Origin: an uncultured Actinomycetes bacterium
Lineage (GTDB): Bacteria; Actinomycetota; UBA4738; HRBIN12
Direction: 5' to 3'
Assembly: GCA_963704725.1 (NCBI GenBank)
Contig: OY969934.1
Coordinates: 2,145,040-2,209,039, forward strand
DNA: 64,000 nucleotides
The notes below the pieces were generated by a model. The model saw only the letters and a list, made by a program, of their open reading frames with translations. It ran no database searches and was not told where the DNA came from. Of this stretch, positions 2,937-63,947 are shown piece by piece (position 1 is the first letter of the stretch; each line of letters starts with the position of its first letter). The translations under genes and the position numbers were made by a program.

Positions 2937-3838
2937 GGCTCGGCCGGGGCCCAGCCCGGCTGGAACAGATGCCAGTCGGGGGGCCTGGCGGCGATGGCGC
3001 GCTCGAACTCCGCCGCCATCAACCGCGACAGCGCCGCAACGTCGGCCCTCGTGTCGCCGGTGCGCTCGCTCTCCAGGGGCGCGCCGATCTGGATCCGCCA
3101 CCCCTGCGGCAGCGTGTAGACGGGACACACGAGGATCGGCGCCCCGCTCGTCAACGAGAGGAGGGCCGGACCGGCGGGGATCCGGCGGGTGGCGCCGAAC
3201 ATCTCGACCTCGACGCCCCGCCCCGTGAGATCGCGGTCGGCGACGAGGGCGACGATCCAGTTCTCGGACAGGAGCTGCTTCAGCTGCTGCCCCACGTGAC
3301 CGTTCTTCGTGAGCGGGATGATCCGCATCCCAAGCTCCTCCCGATGGCGCAGGAAGAGCTCGGACAGGCGCGCCGGCCTGAGCTCCTCGGCCACCGAGGC
3401 GAGCGGGTAGCCGTTCGCGGCGAGGTAGTGCCCGGCCAGGTCCCAGTTCCCCATGTGCGGGAGGACGCAGATGCAGCCGCTCCCCTTCTCGAGGGCGGCA
3501 TCGATGCGATCGACGTCCCGCATGTCGACGCGGGCGTTCACCACCTCGACCGGAAGGGCGCGCAGCCGGAAGGTGTCGTACCAGTAGCGGGCGTACAGGT
3601 CGAACGCCTCGCGCGCCGACAGCCCGACGCGGTCGTCGGCTGGATCGAGGCCGAGCACGCGGGCCTGGTTGGCCACGACGGTCGCCCGCACGCCGTGGAG
3701 TCGTCGATGCGCCAGACCGCCGAACGCCGAGAAGATCCGGCGGCCCAGGCGCTCGGGCAGCGACATCGCGACCGACTCGAGCGTCCGGTAGGCCCAGTAC
3801 GCCGCCGTCTCCTTCGCGCTCTCGCCCCGCCGGGTCAC
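2933..3838 (-). CDS. patA: Phosphatidylinositol mannoside acyltransferase (lauroyl/myristoyl acyltransferase family)
   Basis: HtrB/LpxL-like acyltransferase resembling Mtb Rv2611c. GTG start at 3838 overlaps the pgsA stop as GTGA; stop overlaps the pimA start. Confidence 0.8.
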   Translation of the reverse strand: MTRRGESAKETAAYWAYRTLESVAMSLPERLGRRIFSAFGGLAHRRLHGVRATVVANQARVLGLDPADDRVGLSAREAFDLYARYWYDTFRLRALPVEVVNARVDMRDVDRIDAALEKGSGCICVLPHMGNWDLAGHYLAANGYPLASVAEELRPARLSELFLRHREELGMRIIPLTKNGHVGQQLKQLLSENWIVALVADRDLTGRGVEVEMFGATRRIPAGPALLSLTSGAPILVCPVYTLPQGWRIQIGAPLESERTGDTRADVAALSRLMAAEFERAIAARPPDWHLFQPGWAPAEP

Positions 3839-4490: not shown

Positions 4491-6581
4491 ATGAAGACCT
4501 ACGAAGCGAACGAGATCCGAAACGTCCTGTTGGTCGGCCACGGCGGCGCCGGGAAGACGACCCTGCTCGAGGCCATGCTGTTCGCCTCCGGCGCGCTGAC
4601 GCGGATGGGCAAGGTCGAAGACGGCAACACGGCAAGCGACTTCGAGCCCGAGGAGACGAAGAAGGGCATCAGCGTCTCCCTGGCGATGGCCCCGGTGGAG
4701 TGGAACGGGGTCAAGATCAACGTCCTCGACGCCCCGGGCTACGCCGACTTCGTCGGCGACGTGCGCTCCGCCATCCGGGCGGTCGACGCCGTCCTGCTGG
4801 TGGTCTCGGCGGTCGACGGGGTCGAGGTCCAGACCGAGGTGGGCTGGGAGCTCGCCGTCGAGGCCGGCCTGCCGCGAGCGATCCTCATCAACAAGCTCGA
4901 TCGCGAGCGGGCGTCGTTCGAGCGCACGCTGGACGAGCTCGTGCGCGCGTTCGGGACCCAGGTCGCTCCGCTCGAGCTGCCCCTGGGCGAGGAGCACGAC
5001 TTCGAGGGCGTGGCCGACCTGCTCGGGCGCAAGGCCTACCGCTACGACGGGAGCGCGGCGGCCATCGAAGGCGAGTGGCCCGACGACCTCTCCGGCAAGG
5101 CCGACCCCTATCGGGAGAAGCTGATGGAGGCCGTCGCCGAGTCCGACGACACGCTGATCGAGAAGTACCTGGAGGAGGGCGAGCTCTCCGAGGACGAGGT
5201 CGTCCACGGCGTCAAGAAGGGGTTCGCCGAGGCGCGCATCGCCCCGGTGCTCTGTGCGGCGGCGGCCAGGCCGATCGGCGTGGACCGCATCCTCCAGTTC
5301 ATCGCCGACGAGTTTCCCTCCCCCGCCGATCGCGGCCCGGTGGCGGTGACCACCAAGGCCGGTGAGGAGAAGCAGCGGGCCTGCGATCCCGCTCAGCCCC
5401 TCACGGCCTACGTGTTCAAGACCGTCTCCGACCCCTACGTCGGCCACATCACGATGTTCCGGGTGTTCTCGGGCAAGATGCGTCCGGATTCGACGCTCTA
5501 CAACGCCACGAAGGCGACGGAGGAGCGCATCGGGCAGCTCTTCGCGCTCCGCGGCAAGGAGCACGAATCGGTCTCCGAGATCTCGGCCGGCGACATCGGC
5601 GCGGTGGCCAAGCTCGGCCACACCACCACGGGCGACACGTTCTCGACCAAGGACGATCCGGTGACGGTCGCCGCCTCCGAGATGCCCGAGCCGCTGCTCG
5701 CCTTCGCCATCACCCCGAAGACCAAGGGCGACGAGGAGAAGCTCTCGACGGCTCTGGCGCGCCTGCGCGAGGAGGATCCGACGCTGCGGATCGAGCGCTC
5801 CGACGAGACGCACGAGACCGTGATGTACGGGATGGGCGAGGCCCACCTCGACGTCCAGATCGAGCGGATGAAGCGCAAGTTCGGCGTCGAGGTCTCGACC
5901 GCGCCGGCCAAGATCGCCTACCGCGAGACGATCCGGGGGCCGGGCAAGGGCCTCGGCCGCCACGTGAAGCAGACCGGGGGCCACGGCCAGTACGCGATCT
6001 GCAACATCGAGATCGAGCCGCTCCCCCGGGGCGAGGGGTTCGAGTTCGTCGACAAGATCTTCGGCGGCGCCATCCCCAACCAGTTCATCGCCTCGGTCGA
6101 GAAGGGCGTCGTCAAGACGATGCAGACGGGCGTGATGAGCGGGAACCCCATGGTCGACATCCGCTGCACGCTGGTGGACGGGAAGTTCCACACGGTGGAC
6201 TCGTCGGACATGGCGTTCCAGCTCGCCGGCTCGCTCGCGCTCAAGGAGGCCTCGTCGGCGGCGGGCGTCGTCCTGCTCGAGCCGATCGTCGAGCTCGACG
6301 TCGTGGTCCCCGAGTCCTACACAGGCGACATCATGGGTGACCTGAACTCCAAGCGGGCCAAGATCCAGGGCATGGAGTCGGCCGGCGCGGGGAAGCAGCG
6401 TGTGAAGGCGCTCGTCCCACAGGCCGAGGTGGCCCGGTACGCCATCGATCTCCGCTCGATGACCGGGGGCCGCGGGGCGTTCTCGATGCGCTTCTCGCAC
6501 TACGAGGAGGTCCCGTCACACCTCGCCGAGAAGATCATCGCCGAGGCCCAGCGCGAGAAGGAAGAGGCCCAGAAGAAGTAG
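4491..6581 (+). CDS. fusA2: Elongation factor G paralog (EF-G2 / fusA2-like translational GTPase)
   Basis: 696 aa. G1 motif VGHGGAGKTT, DAPGYADF, then EF-G domains II-V. Collinear with mycobacterial FusA2 (Rv0120c-like), not the canonical fusA. Confidence 0.85.
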   Translation: MKTYEANEIRNVLLVGHGGAGKTTLLEAMLFASGALTRMGKVEDGNTASDFEPEETKKGISVSLAMAPVEWNGVKINVLDAPGYADFVGDVRSAIRAVDAVLLVVSAVDGVEVQTEVGWELAVEAGLPRAILINKLDRERASFERTLDELVRAFGTQVAPLELPLGEEHDFEGVADLLGRKAYRYDGSAAAIEGEWPDDLSGKADPYREKLMEAVAESDDTLIEKYLEEGELSEDEVVHGVKKGFAEARIAPVLCAAAARPIGVDRILQFIADEFPSPADRGPVAVTTKAGEEKQRACDPAQPLTAYVFKTVSDPYVGHITMFRVFSGKMRPDSTLYNATKATEERIGQLFALRGKEHESVSEISAGDIGAVAKLGHTTTGDTFSTKDDPVTVAASEMPEPLLAFAITPKTKGDEEKLSTALARLREEDPTLRIERSDETHETVMYGMGEAHLDVQIERMKRKFGVEVSTAPAKIAYRETIRGPGKGLGRHVKQTGGHGQYAICNIEIEPLPRGEGFEFVDKIFGGAIPNQFIASVEKGVVKTMQTGVMSGNPMVDIRCTLVDGKFHTVDSSDMAFQLAGSLALKEASSAAGVVLLEPIVELDVVVPESYTGDIMGDLNSKRAKIQGMESAGAGKQRVKALVPQAEVARYAIDLRSMTGGRGAFSMRFSHYEEVPSHLAEKIIAEAQREKEEAQKK

Positions 6582-6587
6582 CTCGGG

Positions 6588-7409
6588 CTACGCGAACACC
6601 TCGCGGAGGAACGCCAGCACGACGTCGTTGAACTCCGCGGGCTTGCGCATGTTCACGACATGGTCGACGTCGGGGATCTGCACCAGCCGCGCGTTCGGGA
6701 TGCGTTCGGCGAGCTCCCGTCCGAGGCGCGGCGTCCACGGCGGGTCGTGGTCCGCGGGGAGCACGAGCGTCGGCGCCGTCACCTCCTCCAGTCGCTCGAT
6801 CGCCGGCGGATCGAGGGCCCGCGCCTCGCGCTCGTCCATCGTGAGCGTCTGCAGGTTGTCCATCGCGATCTCTCGGATGCGCGAGCCAGCTGGGTCGTCG
6901 GTCCCGAGGGTCGCCCAGAACGACGCGAGCGCGAGATCCATCGCCTGCTCGAGCCGCCCGGCCGAGATCGCGGCCTCGATCGGCGCCCAACGCTCGGCGA
7001 ACCACGCCTCCTCCTCCGGCGTCCCCTCGTCGGCGCCGCTCACCGCCGACGCCACGAGGACGAGGGCGGACACGCGGTCGGGATGTGCGAGCGCGACGTC
7101 CAGGGAGGTCCCCCCTCCCATCGAGCCGCCGACGACTGCGGCGCGCTCGACGCCGGCCGCATCCATCACGGCGAGGAGGTCGTCGACGTGCGAGTACGGA
7201 CGCCCGGGCTCGGGCCTGCTCGAGCGGCCGCAGCCCCGGGCGTCGTGGCGCAGCACGCGGTAGGACCGCGAGAACGGCTCGAACTGGTCGTCCCAGGTTC
7301 GCCGGTCCCACAGCCCCGGGTGCACGAACGCGACGGCATCGCCGTCTCCGGCCACGTCGTACTCGAGACGGGCGCCGTCGAACTCCACGACATCGGTGCG
7401 GGGGGTCAC
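6588..7409 (-). CDS. Alpha/beta-fold hydrolase (catalytic triad intact)
   Basis: 273 aa. Nucleophile elbow VVGGSMGGG (GxSxG), acid in LPADHDPP, catalytic His in DVDHVVN. Confidence 0.8.
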   Translation of the reverse strand: MTPRTDVVEFDGARLEYDVAGDGDAVAFVHPGLWDRRTWDDQFEPFSRSYRVLRHDARGCGRSSRPEPGRPYSHVDDLLAVMDAAGVERAAVVGGSMGGGTSLDVALAHPDRVSALVLVASAVSGADEGTPEEEAWFAERWAPIEAAISAGRLEQAMDLALASFWATLGTDDPAGSRIREIAMDNLQTLTMDEREARALDPPAIERLEEVTAPTLVLPADHDPPWTPRLGRELAERIPNARLVQIPDVDHVVNMRKPAEFNDVVLAFLREVFA

Positions 7410-13984: not shown

Positions 13985-14054
13985 GATCGGAAGCTCCTTC
14001 GCGAACGCACCACTACGGGCGCCGCCACCCTATCGAACGCCCCGCCCCCGACCG

Positions 14055-14126
14055 TGGGCGCGGCAGGTTTTGAACCTGCGACCTCTTGCGTGTGAAGCAA
14101 GCGCTCTCCCACTGAGCTACGCGCCC
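14055..14126 (-). tRNA. tRNA-Val (anticodon CAC)
   Basis: Hand-folded cloverleaf on the minus strand: acceptor GGGCGCG/CGCGCCC, D-stem GCTC/GAGC, anticodon stem CTTGC/GCAAG with loop TTCACAC, T-arm GCAGG-TTCAAAA-CCTGC. CCA is not encoded. Confidence 0.85.
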
Positions 14127-54173: not shown

Positions 54174-54412
54174 GAGCGAAGCCCTCCTTCACAGCGGAGC
54201 GCACGTTCGCGAGCCTACAGGGGCTCCGATGTCCGCGGAACGTAGAGGGCGGCATGTTCGTCTGTCAAGCGGATGTTCGCGTGGCGGACGCCACGGCCCA
54301 CCGGCCGGGCAGGCCGAACCGGGCCCTCGTCCGTAGTACGGGAGCGGCGCAGCCGGGCGCCGCCGGCCGGTACAGCCGGATCGCGGGTCAAACCGCTCGA
54401 CGAGGAGGTTCC

Positions 54413-55525
54413 ATGCGCAGACGCGTCCTCTCGCTGCTCTCGGTCCTGTGTCTCCTGGCGCTCGCGACGCTCGGATCCACCGCCGCCGCAAGCTCGCGGC
54501 ACGACCCGTCGGCCGCCCGGCACCGGCGCGGCTACCGCGTCTCGGACCTCGTCTCCGACGTGGCCGGCGAGGCCCGCCACCTCGACCCCGATCTCGTGAA
54601 CGCCTGGGGGCTCGCCGCGGGGCCCACCTCGCCGTGGTGGGTGTCCGACAACCACGCGGACGTCTCGACGATCTACGACGGCGCGGGCACCGTCTCGGAC
54701 CTCGTGGTCGGGGTGGACGGCGGCGTCACCGGGCTGGTCTTCAACGGCGGGACCGACTTCGTGGTCGAGAACGGCATCTACTCGGGACCCTCGATCTTCC
54801 TGTTCGACACCGAGGCCGGGACGATCGTCGGCTGGAACCCGGGCGTTCCACCACCCTCGCCCTCGACGTCGAGCTTCGTCGTGGCGGACCGTTCGAACGT
54901 CGGCGCGATCTACAAGGGCCTCGCCATCGCCTCGACGGCGGACGGTGACTTCCTGTATGCGGCCGACTTCCACAACGCGCGGGTCGACATGTTCGACGGC
55001 GACTTCACCCTCGTCAGCGACGACACCACGTTCGTCGATCCCGACATCCCCGACGGCTTCGCCCCCTTCGGCATCCAGAACATCGACGGGACGATCTTCG
55101 TCGCGTACGCCAAGCAGGACGCCGCCGCGGAGGACGAGGAGGCGGGCGCTGGACTCGGCTACGTCGACATGTTCGGCACCGACGGGGCGTTCCTGGGACG
55201 TGTCGCGTCGCAGGGCACCCTGAACGCGCCGTGGGGGCTGGCCATGGCGCCGGCCGACTTCGGCCGTTTCAGCGGCGACCTGCTCGTGGGCAACTTCGGC
55301 GACGGACGGATCCACGCCTATCGTGCCGCGGCCGGCGGGGCGTTCATGCACGCCGGAGCGCTTCGGGCCCGCAACGGGCACCCGGTCACGATCGACGGGC
55401 TGTGGGCGCTCGAGTTCGGCACGGGCGACGTGGCCGGTCCGACGAACGCTCTGTACTTCACCGCGGGGCCCCAAAACGAGACGCACGGACTGTTCGGCAA
55501 GATCGTCGCGGTCCCGCGCTCCTGA
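54413..55525 (+). CDS. Secreted TIGR03118-family beta-propeller protein
   Basis: Signal peptide MRRRVLSLLSVLCLLALA, then repeat blades (NAWGLA, NAPWGLA); start taken at the internal Met of the track ORF. Confidence 0.7.
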   Translation: MRRRVLSLLSVLCLLALATLGSTAAASSRHDPSAARHRRGYRVSDLVSDVAGEARHLDPDLVNAWGLAAGPTSPWWVSDNHADVSTIYDGAGTVSDLVVGVDGGVTGLVFNGGTDFVVENGIYSGPSIFLFDTEAGTIVGWNPGVPPPSPSTSSFVVADRSNVGAIYKGLAIASTADGDFLYAADFHNARVDMFDGDFTLVSDDTTFVDPDIPDGFAPFGIQNIDGTIFVAYAKQDAAAEDEEAGAGLGYVDMFGTDGAFLGRVASQGTLNAPWGLAMAPADFGRFSGDLLVGNFGDGRIHAYRAAAGGAFMHAGALRARNGHPVTIDGLWALEFGTGDVAGPTNALYFTAGPQNETHGLFGKIVAVPRS

Positions 55526-57981: not shown

Positions 57982-58058
57982 CCGCGCAAGGGCTCGGTCC
58001 CGTCGGTGGGGCGGCCGGATGACCGCGTCCCACCGACGGGACCGTCGCCGGTCGAGCG

Positions 58059-58727
58059 CTACGGGGCGATCACGTTCAATGCGGCGGCGGGCTGCGCCAG
58101 CGGCTCGGGCTCTCCCAGGAACCGGGACGCGAGGTAGGGACTGAGATACGGCATGCGCGGGTCGACGATCCGCCCGTTCACCTCCTGGAGCCCGAGCGAG
58201 GCCAGGTACGACTCGCGCAGGCCCGGGAACTGCGCGAACAGCAGGTCCTGCGTCCCGCCGGATCCGACCAGGTAGGCGGGGTTCGCGACGAAGAGCCGAC
58301 CGAGCGGACCGAGCATGGTCGGGTTGTTCCGGAAGTACGCGAGGTAGGGGCTGGGCTCATGCTCCCCTCCCGCCGCGTTGCCGGCGAGGACGTCGCGGGC
58401 CACGTCCGTGAACAGCGCCGCGCGCAGCTCCTGCCGGGTGACTCCGGCTGCGTACGCCTGCTCGGCCGCCGCCTGGAGCTGCCCCAGTGGCACGTCGGCC
58501 ACGGCCAGAGATCCGAACTCCACCTGCCCGTCCCACCATCGCCCGTACGCCCTCATCTGTGCCTGCGACACCTCCGGGCGATCCGGCGCCGCGGCCTGGT
58601 CGAGCGCCGCCCCCCACGCCGGGGCGGCCTGCATGACCGTGAGCCCGAGGAACGCCAGCACCACCGCGCCGGCGATGCGTCGGGAGACTCCGGTCTTCGG
58701 ACCCGATGCCTCGTTCGATCTCTGCAT
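58059..58727 (-). CDS. Hypothetical secreted protein (222 aa)
   Basis: Signal peptide (IAGAVVLAFLGLTVMQAAPAWGA); no known domain; downstream of, and co-directional with, the sigma/PASTA genes. Confidence 0.5.
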   Translation of the reverse strand: MQRSNEASGPKTGVSRRIAGAVVLAFLGLTVMQAAPAWGAALDQAAAPDRPEVSQAQMRAYGRWWDGQVEFGSLAVADVPLGQLQAAAEQAYAAGVTRQELRAALFTDVARDVLAGNAAGGEHEPSPYLAYFRNNPTMLGPLGRLFVANPAYLVGSGGTQDLLFAQFPGLRESYLASLGLQEVNGRIVDPRMPYLSPYLASRFLGEPEPLAQPAAALNVIAP

Positions 58728-58744
58728 CTCCTTCTCCTTTCTGT

Positions 58745-59797
58745 TCACGGCGATCCGTTCGGCGCCGGCCCCGTGCTGACGTGGAGCTCGACGCTCGCCC
58801 CGGCCGTCACCTCGACGCCCGCCGCGGGCTGCTGGGAGGTGACCAGCCCCGCCGGGACCTCCTCCGACGGCTCGAGGGTGACGGTCACGGCCAGTCCGAG
58901 GTCGGCCAGGATCGCCCGGGCCTCGGCCGGCGACAGGCCGGCGACGTTGGGCACCAGGGTCACGACCGGCTGCGCGGTCGCGCCTCCCGGCGGCTCCGGG
59001 TCGGGGAAGGCGTTGGCCCGGATGAACGGGGTGCAGGTCACCGTCGCCTCCGCCGCGTCCCCGATCGTGGAATCGTCCTCGAGGGGCACCTCGCCCACCT
59101 CGCCCACCGCGGCGCCCGCGAAGGACGCGCTGCCGAGGAGCCGGCCGTTCGCGCTCCACACGGCCGCCGTGCACGCCTGCGCGCCGAGCTGCAGGCCCTC
59201 GGGGACCTCGGGCACCTCCACGTCGTACCGGATCGACAGGTGATCGCCGGCGTCCACGATGCGCGCGTTGGCGATCGCCACCGCGACCGGGGCGTCGAGA
59301 CGTCCGGGCTCGCACGAGCCCGTGGCCGTCGCCCCCTCGATCGGGGCATCGACCGGCGCGACCATGGGGCCCGACCGGCCCTGGGACAGCGCGGTGAGCT
59401 CGAACGAGAGCGAGCCGATCTGCGAACCCGACGCGGCGAAGACCCTGAGCTCGCACGGATGCACCCCCGGGTACGCCGCGGTGGACCATCGGGGGATGAA
59501 GGTCACGTCGGCCCGGGTCGGGTCGGCCTCCCCGGTCGCGGGATCGAGGTGGGGCGCCACCTGGAACTCGGACAGCACGTACGTCTGCGATCCGGTCGAG
59601 CCGGGCGTTCCCTCCCCCGGCTGGAGCGCGGTCCACGCGAACCAGCCCGCCGCCGCGAACAGGCCGAGCGCGACGAACCCCGCGGACAGCTGCCGGGTCC
59701 GGCGTCGGCGCTCGACGCGACGCTCCACCGATCGTTGGTCCCCGCGCGGCTCGAACGAGCCGACCGCCTCCTTCAGCAGATCCTGGACGTCAGGCAT
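58745..59797 (-). CDS. Single-pass membrane protein with C-terminal PASTA domain (possible anti-sigma factor partner)
   Basis: 38-aa cytoplasmic N-terminus, one TM helix (FVALGLFAAAGWFAW), about 290 aa extracytoplasmic region ending in a clear PASTA domain (VPNVAGLSPAEARAILADLGLAVTV ... VTSQQPAAGVEVTAGASVELHVS). ATG overlaps the sigma gene stop by 8 nt. Confidence 0.7.
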   Translation of the reverse strand: MPDVQDLLKEAVGSFEPRGDQRSVERRVERRRRTRQLSAGFVALGLFAAAGWFAWTALQPGEGTPGSTGSQTYVLSEFQVAPHLDPATGEADPTRADVTFIPRWSTAAYPGVHPCELRVFAASGSQIGSLSFELTALSQGRSGPMVAPVDAPIEGATATGSCEPGRLDAPVAVAIANARIVDAGDHLSIRYDVEVPEVPEGLQLGAQACTAAVWSANGRLLGSASFAGAAVGEVGEVPLEDDSTIGDAAEATVTCTPFIRANAFPDPEPPGGATAQPVVTLVPNVAGLSPAEARAILADLGLAVTVTLEPSEEVPAGLVTSQQPAAGVEVTAGASVELHVSTGPAPNGSP

Positions 59798-60275
59798 CGT
59801 CGTCACCCCCATAGCGTTCGCGCAGGCTGAGACGGGCGCGGTGGAGCCGCCCCCGGACCGACGCCGCCTCGATCCCGAGGATCCTGCCGGCCTCCTCGGC
59901 CGAGTATCCGAGCCACTCGACGAGCACGAGCGCCTCACGCTGGGCTCGAGGGATCGAGCGGATGGCCCGGAGCAGGTCGAGGCGGCGATCGGTGGCCTCC
60001 GTCTCCTCGGAGGGCTCGCGCAGCACCTGCCGGCGCGCGGCCATGGCCAACCGCCGCACCGCATTCCGATGCAGGTTCAGGGCCGTCCGGTAGAGGTACC
60101 CCTCGGGGTCCTCCATCGCCGAGACCCGGTCCCACCGCTCGAGGACCCTGGCCATGGCCTCCTGGGCCAGGTCCTCGCCCTCGGCCGCGCTCCCCGTGAG
60201 CAGCAGGCACGCCCGCGCCAGGCGTCGGTACCGCTCCGCGAAGAAGTCGCCGAAGGCCGGTGCCTCACTGGTCAT
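59790..60275 (-). CDS. ECF-type RNA polymerase sigma factor (sigma-70 regions 2 and 4)
   Basis: Region 2 (YLYRTALNLHRNAVRR) and region 4 HTH (REALVLVEWLGYSAEEAGRILGIEAASVRGRLHRAR). Confidence 0.85.
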   Translation of the reverse strand: MTSEAPAFGDFFAERYRRLARACLLLTGSAAEGEDLAQEAMARVLERWDRVSAMEDPEGYLYRTALNLHRNAVRRLAMAARRQVLREPSEETEATDRRLDLLRAIRSIPRAQREALVLVEWLGYSAEEAGRILGIEAASVRGRLHRARLSLRERYGGDDDA

Positions 60276-60369
60276 GGGCAGAGTCTGCAGGGCCTGCACG
60301 ACTCATGAACACACTGGGCGGCCGTTCCGTTCGGGTCGCCCCCGGAACGGTCGGCCCGCCCGCGCAGGA

Positions 60370-63775: not shown

Positions 63776-63850
63776 TGGTGGGCGCTAGAGGATTTGAACC
63801 TCTGGCCTCTTCCGCGTCAAGGAAGCGCTCTACCCCTGAGCTAAGCGCCC
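63776..63850 (-). tRNA. tRNA-Asp (anticodon GTC), CCA encoded
   Basis: Hand-folded: acceptor GGGCGCT/AGCGCCC, D-arm GCTC-AGGGGTA-GAGC, anticodon arm CTTCC-TTGACGC-GGAAG, T-arm AGAGG-TTCAAAT-CCTCT, 3' ACCA. Coordinates +/-1. Confidence 0.85.
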
Positions 63851-63876
63851 GCAGCCCGGCATGGTACCGGGTCTCG

Positions 63877-63947
63877 AGGCGGGGACCGGAATTGAACCGG
63901 TGTACAGGGTTTTGCAGACCCTTGCCTAACCACTCGGCCACCCCGCC
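63877..63947 (-). tRNA. tRNA-Cys (anticodon GCA)
   Basis: Hand-folded: acceptor GGCGGGG/CCCCGCC, anticodon arm AGGGT-CTGCAAA-ACCCT, T-arm ACCGG-TTCAATT-CCGGT, discriminator U. Coordinates +/-1. Confidence 0.85.

Follow-up and report, generated by a model that had tools for sequence, protein, structure and literature searches.

A Three-Gene ECF Sigma Factor Cassette with a PASTA-Bearing Membrane Partner, a Candidate Anti-Sigma Factor, in an Uncultured Actinobacterium

Introduction

Pairs of a sigma factor of the extracytoplasmic function (ECF) type and an anti-sigma factor are among the commonest signaling devices in bacteria, and to our knowledge the signal sensed by the extracytoplasmic part is not known for most of them. 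In the CnrH-CnrY-CnrX system of Cupriavidus metallidurans, CnrY is almost devoid of an ectodomain, and it is CnrX that does the sensing and binds metals. In SigI-RsgI (Clostridium thermocellum, Bacillus subtilis) and SigV-RsiV, the ectodomain of the anti-sigma factor binds a ligand related to the cell wall or to polysaccharides and so controls the release of sigma. Here, we analyze a stretch of 64,000 nucleotides (nt) from an uncultured Actinomycetes bacterium (contig OY969934.1, positions 2,145,040 to 2,209,039), referred to below as the window, in which three co-oriented minus-strand genes encode an ECF sigma factor, a 350-amino acid (aa) membrane partner that ends in a PASTA domain, and an exported 222-aa protein. 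We read them, with modest confidence, as a three-gene ECF signaling cassette that is probably autoregulated, in which the cytoplasmic tail of the partner would act as the anti-sigma element and its PASTA ectodomain would sense the wall. What the cassette shows is an uncommon version of a signaling design widespread in bacteria, not a new kind of system.

The closest described systems each share part of this design. Like CnrH-CnrY-CnrX, the cassette unites in one operon an ECF sigma factor, a single-pass partner with a two-helix cytoplasmic part (here a predicted one), and a third protein that is extracytoplasmic. The partner has no sequence similarity to CnrY, however, and carries an ectodomain of ~290 aa with PASTA; the third protein is all-alpha and unrelated to CnrX, and the host is a monoderm. 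Profile scans detected no RsgI_N, RsiV, or other known anti-sigma domain in the partner, which sets it apart from RsgI and RsiV, and those systems belong to other sigma families and other phyla. Like the PASTA kinases PknB, PrkC, and StkP, it is a type II single-pass protein with an extracellular PASTA that fits PknB to 0.9 Å. Unlike them, it lacks a kinase and has one PASTA, of the PASTA1-like kind, in place of three or four. In Mycobacterium tuberculosis, the PASTA sensor PknB ultimately frees the ECF sigma factor SigE under surface stress, controlling the anti-SigE factor RseA upstream of its degradation (PMC10027907). Compared with this PknB → RseA → SigE route, the link to sigma in the cassette would be direct, within the same polypeptide, and not by way of phosphorylation and ClpC1P2 proteolysis. 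PMC7826278 describes an actinobacterial clade (ECF38, ECF39, ECF51, and ECF222) that shares one putative type of anti-sigma factor without a Pfam match. As portrayed there, SigE-like ECFs are followed by single-pass proteins with a conserved cytoplasmic stretch that no Pfam anti-sigma model recognizes, much as in the cassette. Two differences are that the cassette sigma falls under the TIGR02983 cut-off and that PASTA goes unmentioned in the main text of that paper. The cassette probably belongs in or near this clade.

We searched the literature for an anti-sigma factor that bears PASTA and found none described. Such a partner would supply a concrete ligand hypothesis, lipid II or muropeptides, and the cassette, if the reading is true, would represent, in compact form, an alternative to the mycobacterial link from PASTA to SigE by way of a kinase.

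Results and Discussion

Sigma Factor and Partner Lie Side by Side in Every Tail-Bearing Locus Compared

The three genes and the promoter-like motif ahead of them lie in a region of ~73% G+C:

59790..60299, minus strand: ECF (group IV) sigma factor (Pfam, NCBIfam)
59797..58745, minus strand: membrane partner, 350 aa (open reading frame with Pfam PASTA and a transmembrane helix)
58727..58059, minus strand: exported 222-aa protein, the third gene (open reading frame, ribosome-binding site, conserved position)
60304..60334, minus strand: ECF-type promoter-like motif (motif scan and alignment by eye)

The ATG of the partner overlaps the TGA of sigma by 8 nt (ATGCCTGA), and the third gene starts 17 nt past the partner stop behind a strong GGAG-rich ribosome-binding site. 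The original prediction, made from the DNA alone, had placed a sigma factor, a PASTA membrane protein, and a 222-aa secreted protein at these positions, with the sigma stop overlapping the partner start and the third gene in the same orientation. All of this holds, on the minus strand, and the sigma-partner synteny to which it pointed extends to every tail-bearing locus that we compared.

Close homologs of the partner are few and come exclusively from metagenomes or metagenome-assembled genomes (MAGs) of uncultured Actinomycetota. A contig scan with a 9-sequence alignment recovered 4 species, all of them uncultured Actinomycetota MAGs; the window's own genome was not among them. Thirteen distinct tail-bearing loci were compared (loci carry L labels and partner-related proteins P labels), and in 13/13 an ECF sigma gene lies immediately upstream of the partner with an overlapping start. 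The junction is ATGnnTGA in 12 of the 13, with a GGAGG Shine-Dalgarno sequence inside the 3' end of sigma; in the distant L015, the partner starts with GTG and overlaps sigma by 11 nt. Adjacency reaches beyond close orthologs. Sigma is directly upstream of distant members with other tail sequences (P0102 and P0050) and of two proteins that share only the tail and transmembrane (TM) helix with the window partner, namely, P0018 (PASTA plus an additional domain, X) and P0072 (PD40 propeller plus PASTA).

The tail also varies together with sigma. It is 63-79% identical wherever sigma is 75-86% identical, irrespective of the ectodomain attached to it. In L007, identity falls to 53% for sigma and to 40% for the tail, yet the ectodomain is clearly orthologous (48% identical across 344 aa, with an unchanged architecture). 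L002, which the neighboring AraC (71-74% identical) and LysE (58%) genes show to be syntenic with the window, keeps sigma (82%), the tail (71%), the TM helix, a PASTA, and the third gene; the rest of the ectodomain has been exchanged. In its partner (6001-7050), the tandem beta-sandwich described below is replaced by domain X, an unrelated C-terminal domain of ~200 aa with no Pfam match that is also found in P0019, P0118, and L019. Aligned against window positions 58745-59797, L002 presents itself as an ectodomain swap in situ. Such tracking of sigma by the tail is the pattern expected if the tail contacts sigma and the ectodomain is an exchangeable sensor. Comparative genomics thus makes the reading as a sigma/anti-sigma pair, which the original prediction had put forward, a well supported one, and the partner probably holds sigma inactive.

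Additional ECF sigma genes are located a few kb or less from the cassette in related MAG loci (L002, 857-2133; L007, 1073-2894; L017, 4573-6653; L009, 891-1370; L004, ~3043-3504). Behind some of them comes an unannotated gene that overlaps or abuts the sigma gene, a pattern suggestive of lineage-specific expansion of modules made of a sigma and a short-tail partner.

An ECF Sigma Factor Preceded by a Predicted Autoregulatory Promoter

The sigma factor consists of regions sigma2 and sigma4 (Pfam Sigma70_r2, E=2.6e-10; Sigma70_r4_2, E=1e-11) with no other domain in its 161-169 aa. With these two regions only, fewer than 200 aa, and 63.8 bits against NCBIfam sigma70-ECF (cut-off 42.9), it is an ECF (group IV) sigma factor. 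Its best subfamily model, TIGR02983 (SigE-fam_strep), gives 109.8 bits, under the cut-off of 141.55, which leaves it outside the SigE family as so defined. The nearest solved relative is SigE of M. tuberculosis, and orthologs with 75-86% identity occur in 9 related loci. The gene had originally been started at the ATG at 60275 (60275..59790, 161 aa). The gene is there, and the conserved GTG at 60299, which gives 169 aa, is probably its true start; a public protein collection stores the 169-aa form.

The motif CCGAACG-N17-GTTCATG stands upstream of sigma and ends 4 nt before this GTG. It matches once in the window against 0.03 matches expected, even when 1 mismatch is permitted, and in 11 related loci it occurs exactly once per locus, always just upstream of sigma and nowhere else there. 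ECF promoters typically have AAC in the -35 element and GTT (or CGT) in the -10 element. Because the motif has both AAC in the -35 and GTT in the -10 position, the pattern of ECF autoregulation as far as sequence can tell, it is a predicted promoter from which sigma likely transcribes its own operon. The GTG lies only 4 nt past the motif, which suggests a leaderless or very-short-leader mRNA and with it the 169-aa form. A shorter version of the pattern gave a second match in L002 (11336-11361), which we rejected as chance because it disappears with the longer motif and lies within a coding region, that of the signal peptide of a lipoprotein-like gene. Simple scans found no sigma-70-type promoter and no T-tailed terminator, and a hairpin described below escaped the terminator scan.

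A Short Cytoplasmic Tail as the Candidate Sigma-Binding Element

The cytoplasmic and membrane-spanning parts of the partner are as follows:

59684..59797, minus strand: tail, partner aa 1-38 (conservation, AlphaFold2 (AF2) model)
59624..59683, minus strand: TM helix, partner aa ~39-58, N-in/C-out (hydropathy scan, AF2 model)

The tail (MPDVQDLLKEAVGSFEPRGDQRSVERRVERRRRTRQLS) is Arg-rich; its predicted elements are an amphipathic helix of short length, then the conserved EPRGD loop and a helix rich in Arg. By the positive-inside rule, an Arg-rich segment N-terminal of the TM helix fits the N-in topology. With a mean column identity of 71% in alignment A3, the tail is also the best-conserved segment of the partner. 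The original description of a 38-aa tail with no canonical zinc anti-sigma domain was accurate: the segment contains neither Cys nor His and therefore no HxxxCxxC motif, and no anti-sigma model of Pfam or NCBIfam matches the partner.

A class I anti-sigma domain (ASDI, a definition that includes ZAS, zf-HC2, and RskA) spans ~80-90 aa at the N-terminus, where a fourth helix adds to a three-helix bundle, and has HxxxCxxC in the ZAS subclass. At ~38 aa, the tail is too short to be one. Class II anti-sigma domains with two helices exist (PMC6101532). The helices of this class clamp regions sigma2 and sigma4 of their sigma factor. The AF2 model of the partner (mean predicted local distance difference test, pLDDT, 80) predicts a helix at residues 4-11, a loop, and a long helix at 21-57 that runs through the TM segment, with a pLDDT of only 49-64 in the tail. 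By its size and predicted helix-loop-helix, the tail most resembles the two-helix class II clamp of CnrY and NepR, and we propose it as a minimal anti-sigma domain. Should it prove real, few known anti-sigma domains would be smaller, and synthetic circuits could use it as a small, orthogonal regulator. A profile of tail plus TM helix (A3) run against an index of 5.8 billion proteins gave two marginal matches and did not recover the family itself, an uninformative result probably caused by composition filters.

An exhaustive profile search with partner residues 1-276 returned 663 representative proteins at E ≤ 1e-3. Among the 150 best representatives, 93 have an Arg/Lys-rich segment of 25-57 aa (median 37) ahead of the TM helix, and the HxxxCxxC motif occurs in none of these 93. 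The search thereby outlines a large actinobacterial set of ECF partners with a cytoplasmic part of ~37 residues.

A PASTA Domain Carried on a Tandem Beta-Sandwich

Two kinds of domain make up the ectodomain:

59012..59590, minus strand: two immunoglobulin (Ig)-like beta-sandwich repeats, partner aa ~70-262 (AF2 model, internal repeat)
58763..58963, minus strand: single C-terminal PASTA, partner aa 279-345 (Pfam, sequence match to the Protein Data Bank (PDB), Foldseek)

The original prediction held that the extracytoplasmic part ends in a well-formed PASTA, and this is borne out by profile as well as by fold. With PF03793, partner aa 282-342 score 57.9 bits (E=1e-15; cut-off 23.2) and align to positions 3-64 of the 64 in the profile. 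In the AF2 model, it follows a short low-confidence linker and has a pLDDT of ~84. Foldseek superimposes it on PknB (5e10, 3ouv, 5e12) and Staphylococcus aureus PrkC (3py9) with a root-mean-square deviation (rmsd) of 0.9-1.4 Å and a probability of 1.0, the best fit being 5e10 (M. tuberculosis PknB PASTA1-2; rmsd 0.9 Å, 37% identity). Two kinds of enzyme that carry PASTA can be set aside for the partner. It has no Pkinase match, and NF033483 covers its PASTA part only (38.1 bits, cut-off 450); there is no transpeptidase domain, and spoVD_pbp reaches 11.1 bits against a cut-off of 688, so that it is not a class B penicillin-binding protein. With the same tail, PASTA is found in four architectures, which are tandem beta plus PASTA, PASTA plus domain X, PD40 propeller plus PASTA, and an uncharacterized domain plus PASTA plus an extension.

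What the original account of the ectodomain overlooked is the tandem beta-sandwich between the TM helix and PASTA. This region of ~200 aa is modeled at a pLDDT of ~90, with the beta units themselves at aa ~73-257; the two units duplicate one another (BLASTP E=2e-4), and each repeat contains a near-invariant Cys pair (C115/C162 and C209/C255). Foldseek searches with the beta units return generic Ig-like matches only, and no curated family covers the tandem ectodomain, which together with the exported all-alpha protein represents uncharacterized families that lack a curated model. DUF4307 (PF14155) does not match the window partner, which is therefore not a member; in 18 of 141 relatives, it gives weak matches below threshold (best E=6.6e-6, bit scores <27). 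Accessory domains in 141 of the 150 best representatives include PASTA (5), LytR_C (8), beta-propellers, FG-GAP, and thioredoxin-like modules. The tandem beta-sandwich is the family-defining part of the ectodomain and, as a candidate for the role of sensor, is as good as PASTA. The occurrence of LytR_C, another module associated with the cell envelope, speaks in favor of an envelope role.

One protein, P0107 (1593 aa), gave 13 matches to a piece of ~30 residues of the beta profile, and its sequence opens with a peptide that is repeated exactly (SSPGEIFLQQSGVQIRTLVY). A repeat protein or an artifact of assembly, unrelated to the ectodomain family, is the probable explanation, and P0107 was left out of the family alignment.

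An Exported All-Alpha Protein as the Third Gene

The 222-aa protein begins with a variable hydrophobic signal or anchor segment, followed by a mature domain that AF2 models confidently as all-alpha (pLDDT 79 for the model as a whole). Foldseek finds no PDB match for this model. Its homologs form 30 clusters, all at >50% identity and all from uncultured Actinomycetota, and among these 30 clusters, there are no sequence relatives in Pfam or the PDB. Homologs with 52-64% identity lie 3' of the partner in L001, L002/6, L003, L005, L018, and L019, and in L011 in frameshifted form; contig sizes suggest that further homologs share contigs with P0008, P0010, P0014, and P0019. The gene is absent from L007, L009, and L017. 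By its conserved position, this is the third gene of the cassette, in agreement with the original gene order.

A Working Model and Its Alternatives

In the working model, sigma would be translated in fixed coupling with its type II single-pass partner by means of the ATGnnTGA overlap. The tail of ~38 aa, class II-like (CnrY/NepR) and not of class I or the zinc type, would bind sigma and keep it at the membrane; its two predicted helices are the short amphipathic one and the Arg-rich one that runs into the membrane. Outside the cell, the two disulfide-containing Ig-like repeats would form a stalk that carries the single PASTA, which most likely ties the partner to lipid II or to peptidoglycan that is not crosslinked. 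When the wall changes, the ectodomain would be affected in its state or its stability, and this would lead to the release of sigma, presumably by regulated proteolysis. Free sigma would transcribe its own operon from the CCGAAC-N18-GTT promoter as well as a further regulon. The 222-aa protein may modulate the partner from outside the cytoplasm, much like RseB, CnrX, or CseA, or may be the system's first output.

Several observations weigh against this model. About half of the partners with the same tail lack PASTA, and the L018 partner lacks it though its sigma is 84% identical and its third gene is kept; a hidden PASTA is impossible there because only 16 nt separate the partner from the third gene. 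The best PDB sequence match of the partner PASTA is PknB PASTA1 (E=9e-8). On the cytoplasmic side, the missing match to anti-sigma models is accompanied by the lack of detectable sequence similarity between the tail and solved anti-sigma factors, and the structure of the tail is modeled at low confidence only. No cell-wall genes adjoin the operon, whose neighbors encode EamA and major facilitator superfamily (MFS) transporters, a methyltransferase, AraC, and LysE. Finally, the window holds no second copy of the promoter motif, and therefore no further member of the regulon can be named.

The objections to PASTA bear on the alternative that survives best, a lesser but real possibility: the partner is an anti-sigma factor in which PASTA is only an accessory anchor, localization module, or spacer, and the signal arrives through the beta-sandwich, the 222-aa protein, or proteolysis independent of peptidoglycan. 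PASTA is dispensable in close orthologs, namely, L018, L004/P0009, and forms of 268-278 aa (P0008, P0010, and P0014), and the cassette does not require it. What is widespread is the tandem beta domain, with its 663 representatives, and the distal position of the ectodomain is also filled by FG-GAP, PD40 propellers, LytR_C, and thioredoxin-like domains. The PASTA of PknB binds lipid II and muropeptide; its ligand contacts map to the PASTA3-4 linker and to PASTA4, and PASTA1-3 chiefly give length (PMC6428115). Since the partner PASTA is nearest to PASTA1 and the ligand residues of PknB are those of the PASTA3-4 linker, ligand binding cannot be deduced from the domain. However, PASTA has been kept through at least 3 independent domain rearrangements within one sigma orthogroup, and selection on PASTA itself is therefore favored over a neutral spacer. 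We conclude that cell-wall sensing by the cassette is plausible from its domain content. The original prediction of a direct cell-wall-sensing pair accordingly stands as to the pair and goes too far as to direct sensing, given that PASTA is present in about half of the same-tail partners and is PASTA1-like.

Two further candidates for loss of PASTA, P0007 and P0013, were rejected, both being frameshifted. A PASTA sequence is readable in another frame in L001 (6840-7058), and the partner reading frame of L011 breaks in the same region (~4645-5514). Both loci belong to assembly ERZ25039602, and in both the partner and third genes are frameshifted, through indels of a long-read assembly or as pseudogenes.

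A stronger version of the working model appears doubtful. It would have a one-polypeptide wall sensor in which lipid II or un-crosslinked peptidoglycan bound to PASTA governs sigma release through a minimal, hitherto undescribed anti-sigma domain of ~37 aa with a wide distribution in Actinomycetota, dispensing with the kinase step of PknB → RseA → SigE, and in which the secreted all-alpha protein, of novel fold, is an obligatory co-sensor.

Less probable still is that the partner does not regulate sigma at all. The partner and the 222-aa protein would then be the first, co-transcribed members of the regulon, and sigma would be controlled elsewhere, by its transcription or by a two-component system as is Streptomyces SigE by CseBC. 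In keeping with this, the partner has no recognizable anti-sigma domain, the best subfamily of sigma is SigE-fam_strep, and PMC7826278 reports, for the corresponding group ECF39, some subgroups that use a two-component system without an anti-sigma factor. The same ectodomain moreover occurs without a tail, with a signal or anchor sequence only, in 43 of the 150 best representatives; in the one that was checked, P0089, a signal-peptide form of the beta domain, no sigma gene adjoins. What speaks against a bystander is the tail, which is the best-conserved part of the partner, follows sigma rather than the ectodomain in its variation, and stands behind the same sigma in every case in which it has been joined to an unrelated ectodomain. 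In addition, the start/stop overlap is present in every locus checked, distant pairs included, and there is no two-component system in the neighborhood of the operon.

That the tail acts positively, as a FecR-like pro-sigma element or co-activator that sigma needs for activity, is very improbable. The evidence for contact between tail and sigma would fit either sign of regulation, and the N-terminal part of FecR-type regulators is a precedent for a positively acting sigma partner, but the Pfam scan shows no FecR similarity. Most single-pass ECF partners that have been studied are inhibitors, according to PMC6101532 and PMC7826278.

The Surroundings of the Operon

One further feature was detected downstream of the third gene:

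57995..58044, strand unset: hairpin between convergent genes (RNA fold)

It is a GC-rich hairpin with a 22-bp stem (-63.8 kcal/mol; z = -3.7 against shuffled sequences) placed between the 222-aa gene and the convergent methyltransferase gene, and it is probably the terminator of the operon, bidirectional and without a T tail. No paralogs of the three cassette genes were found elsewhere in the window. A 423-aa open reading frame (window 54254-55525, plus strand) adjoins the LysE/AraC pair; its N-terminus is Arg-rich and leads into a signal-peptide-like start, and Pfam gives no match. The window also contains a tRNA-Val(CAC) gene at 14054-14126 (minus strand) and, near its end, tRNA-Val(GAC) and tRNA-Cys(GCA) genes in tandem at 63776-63947 (minus strand).

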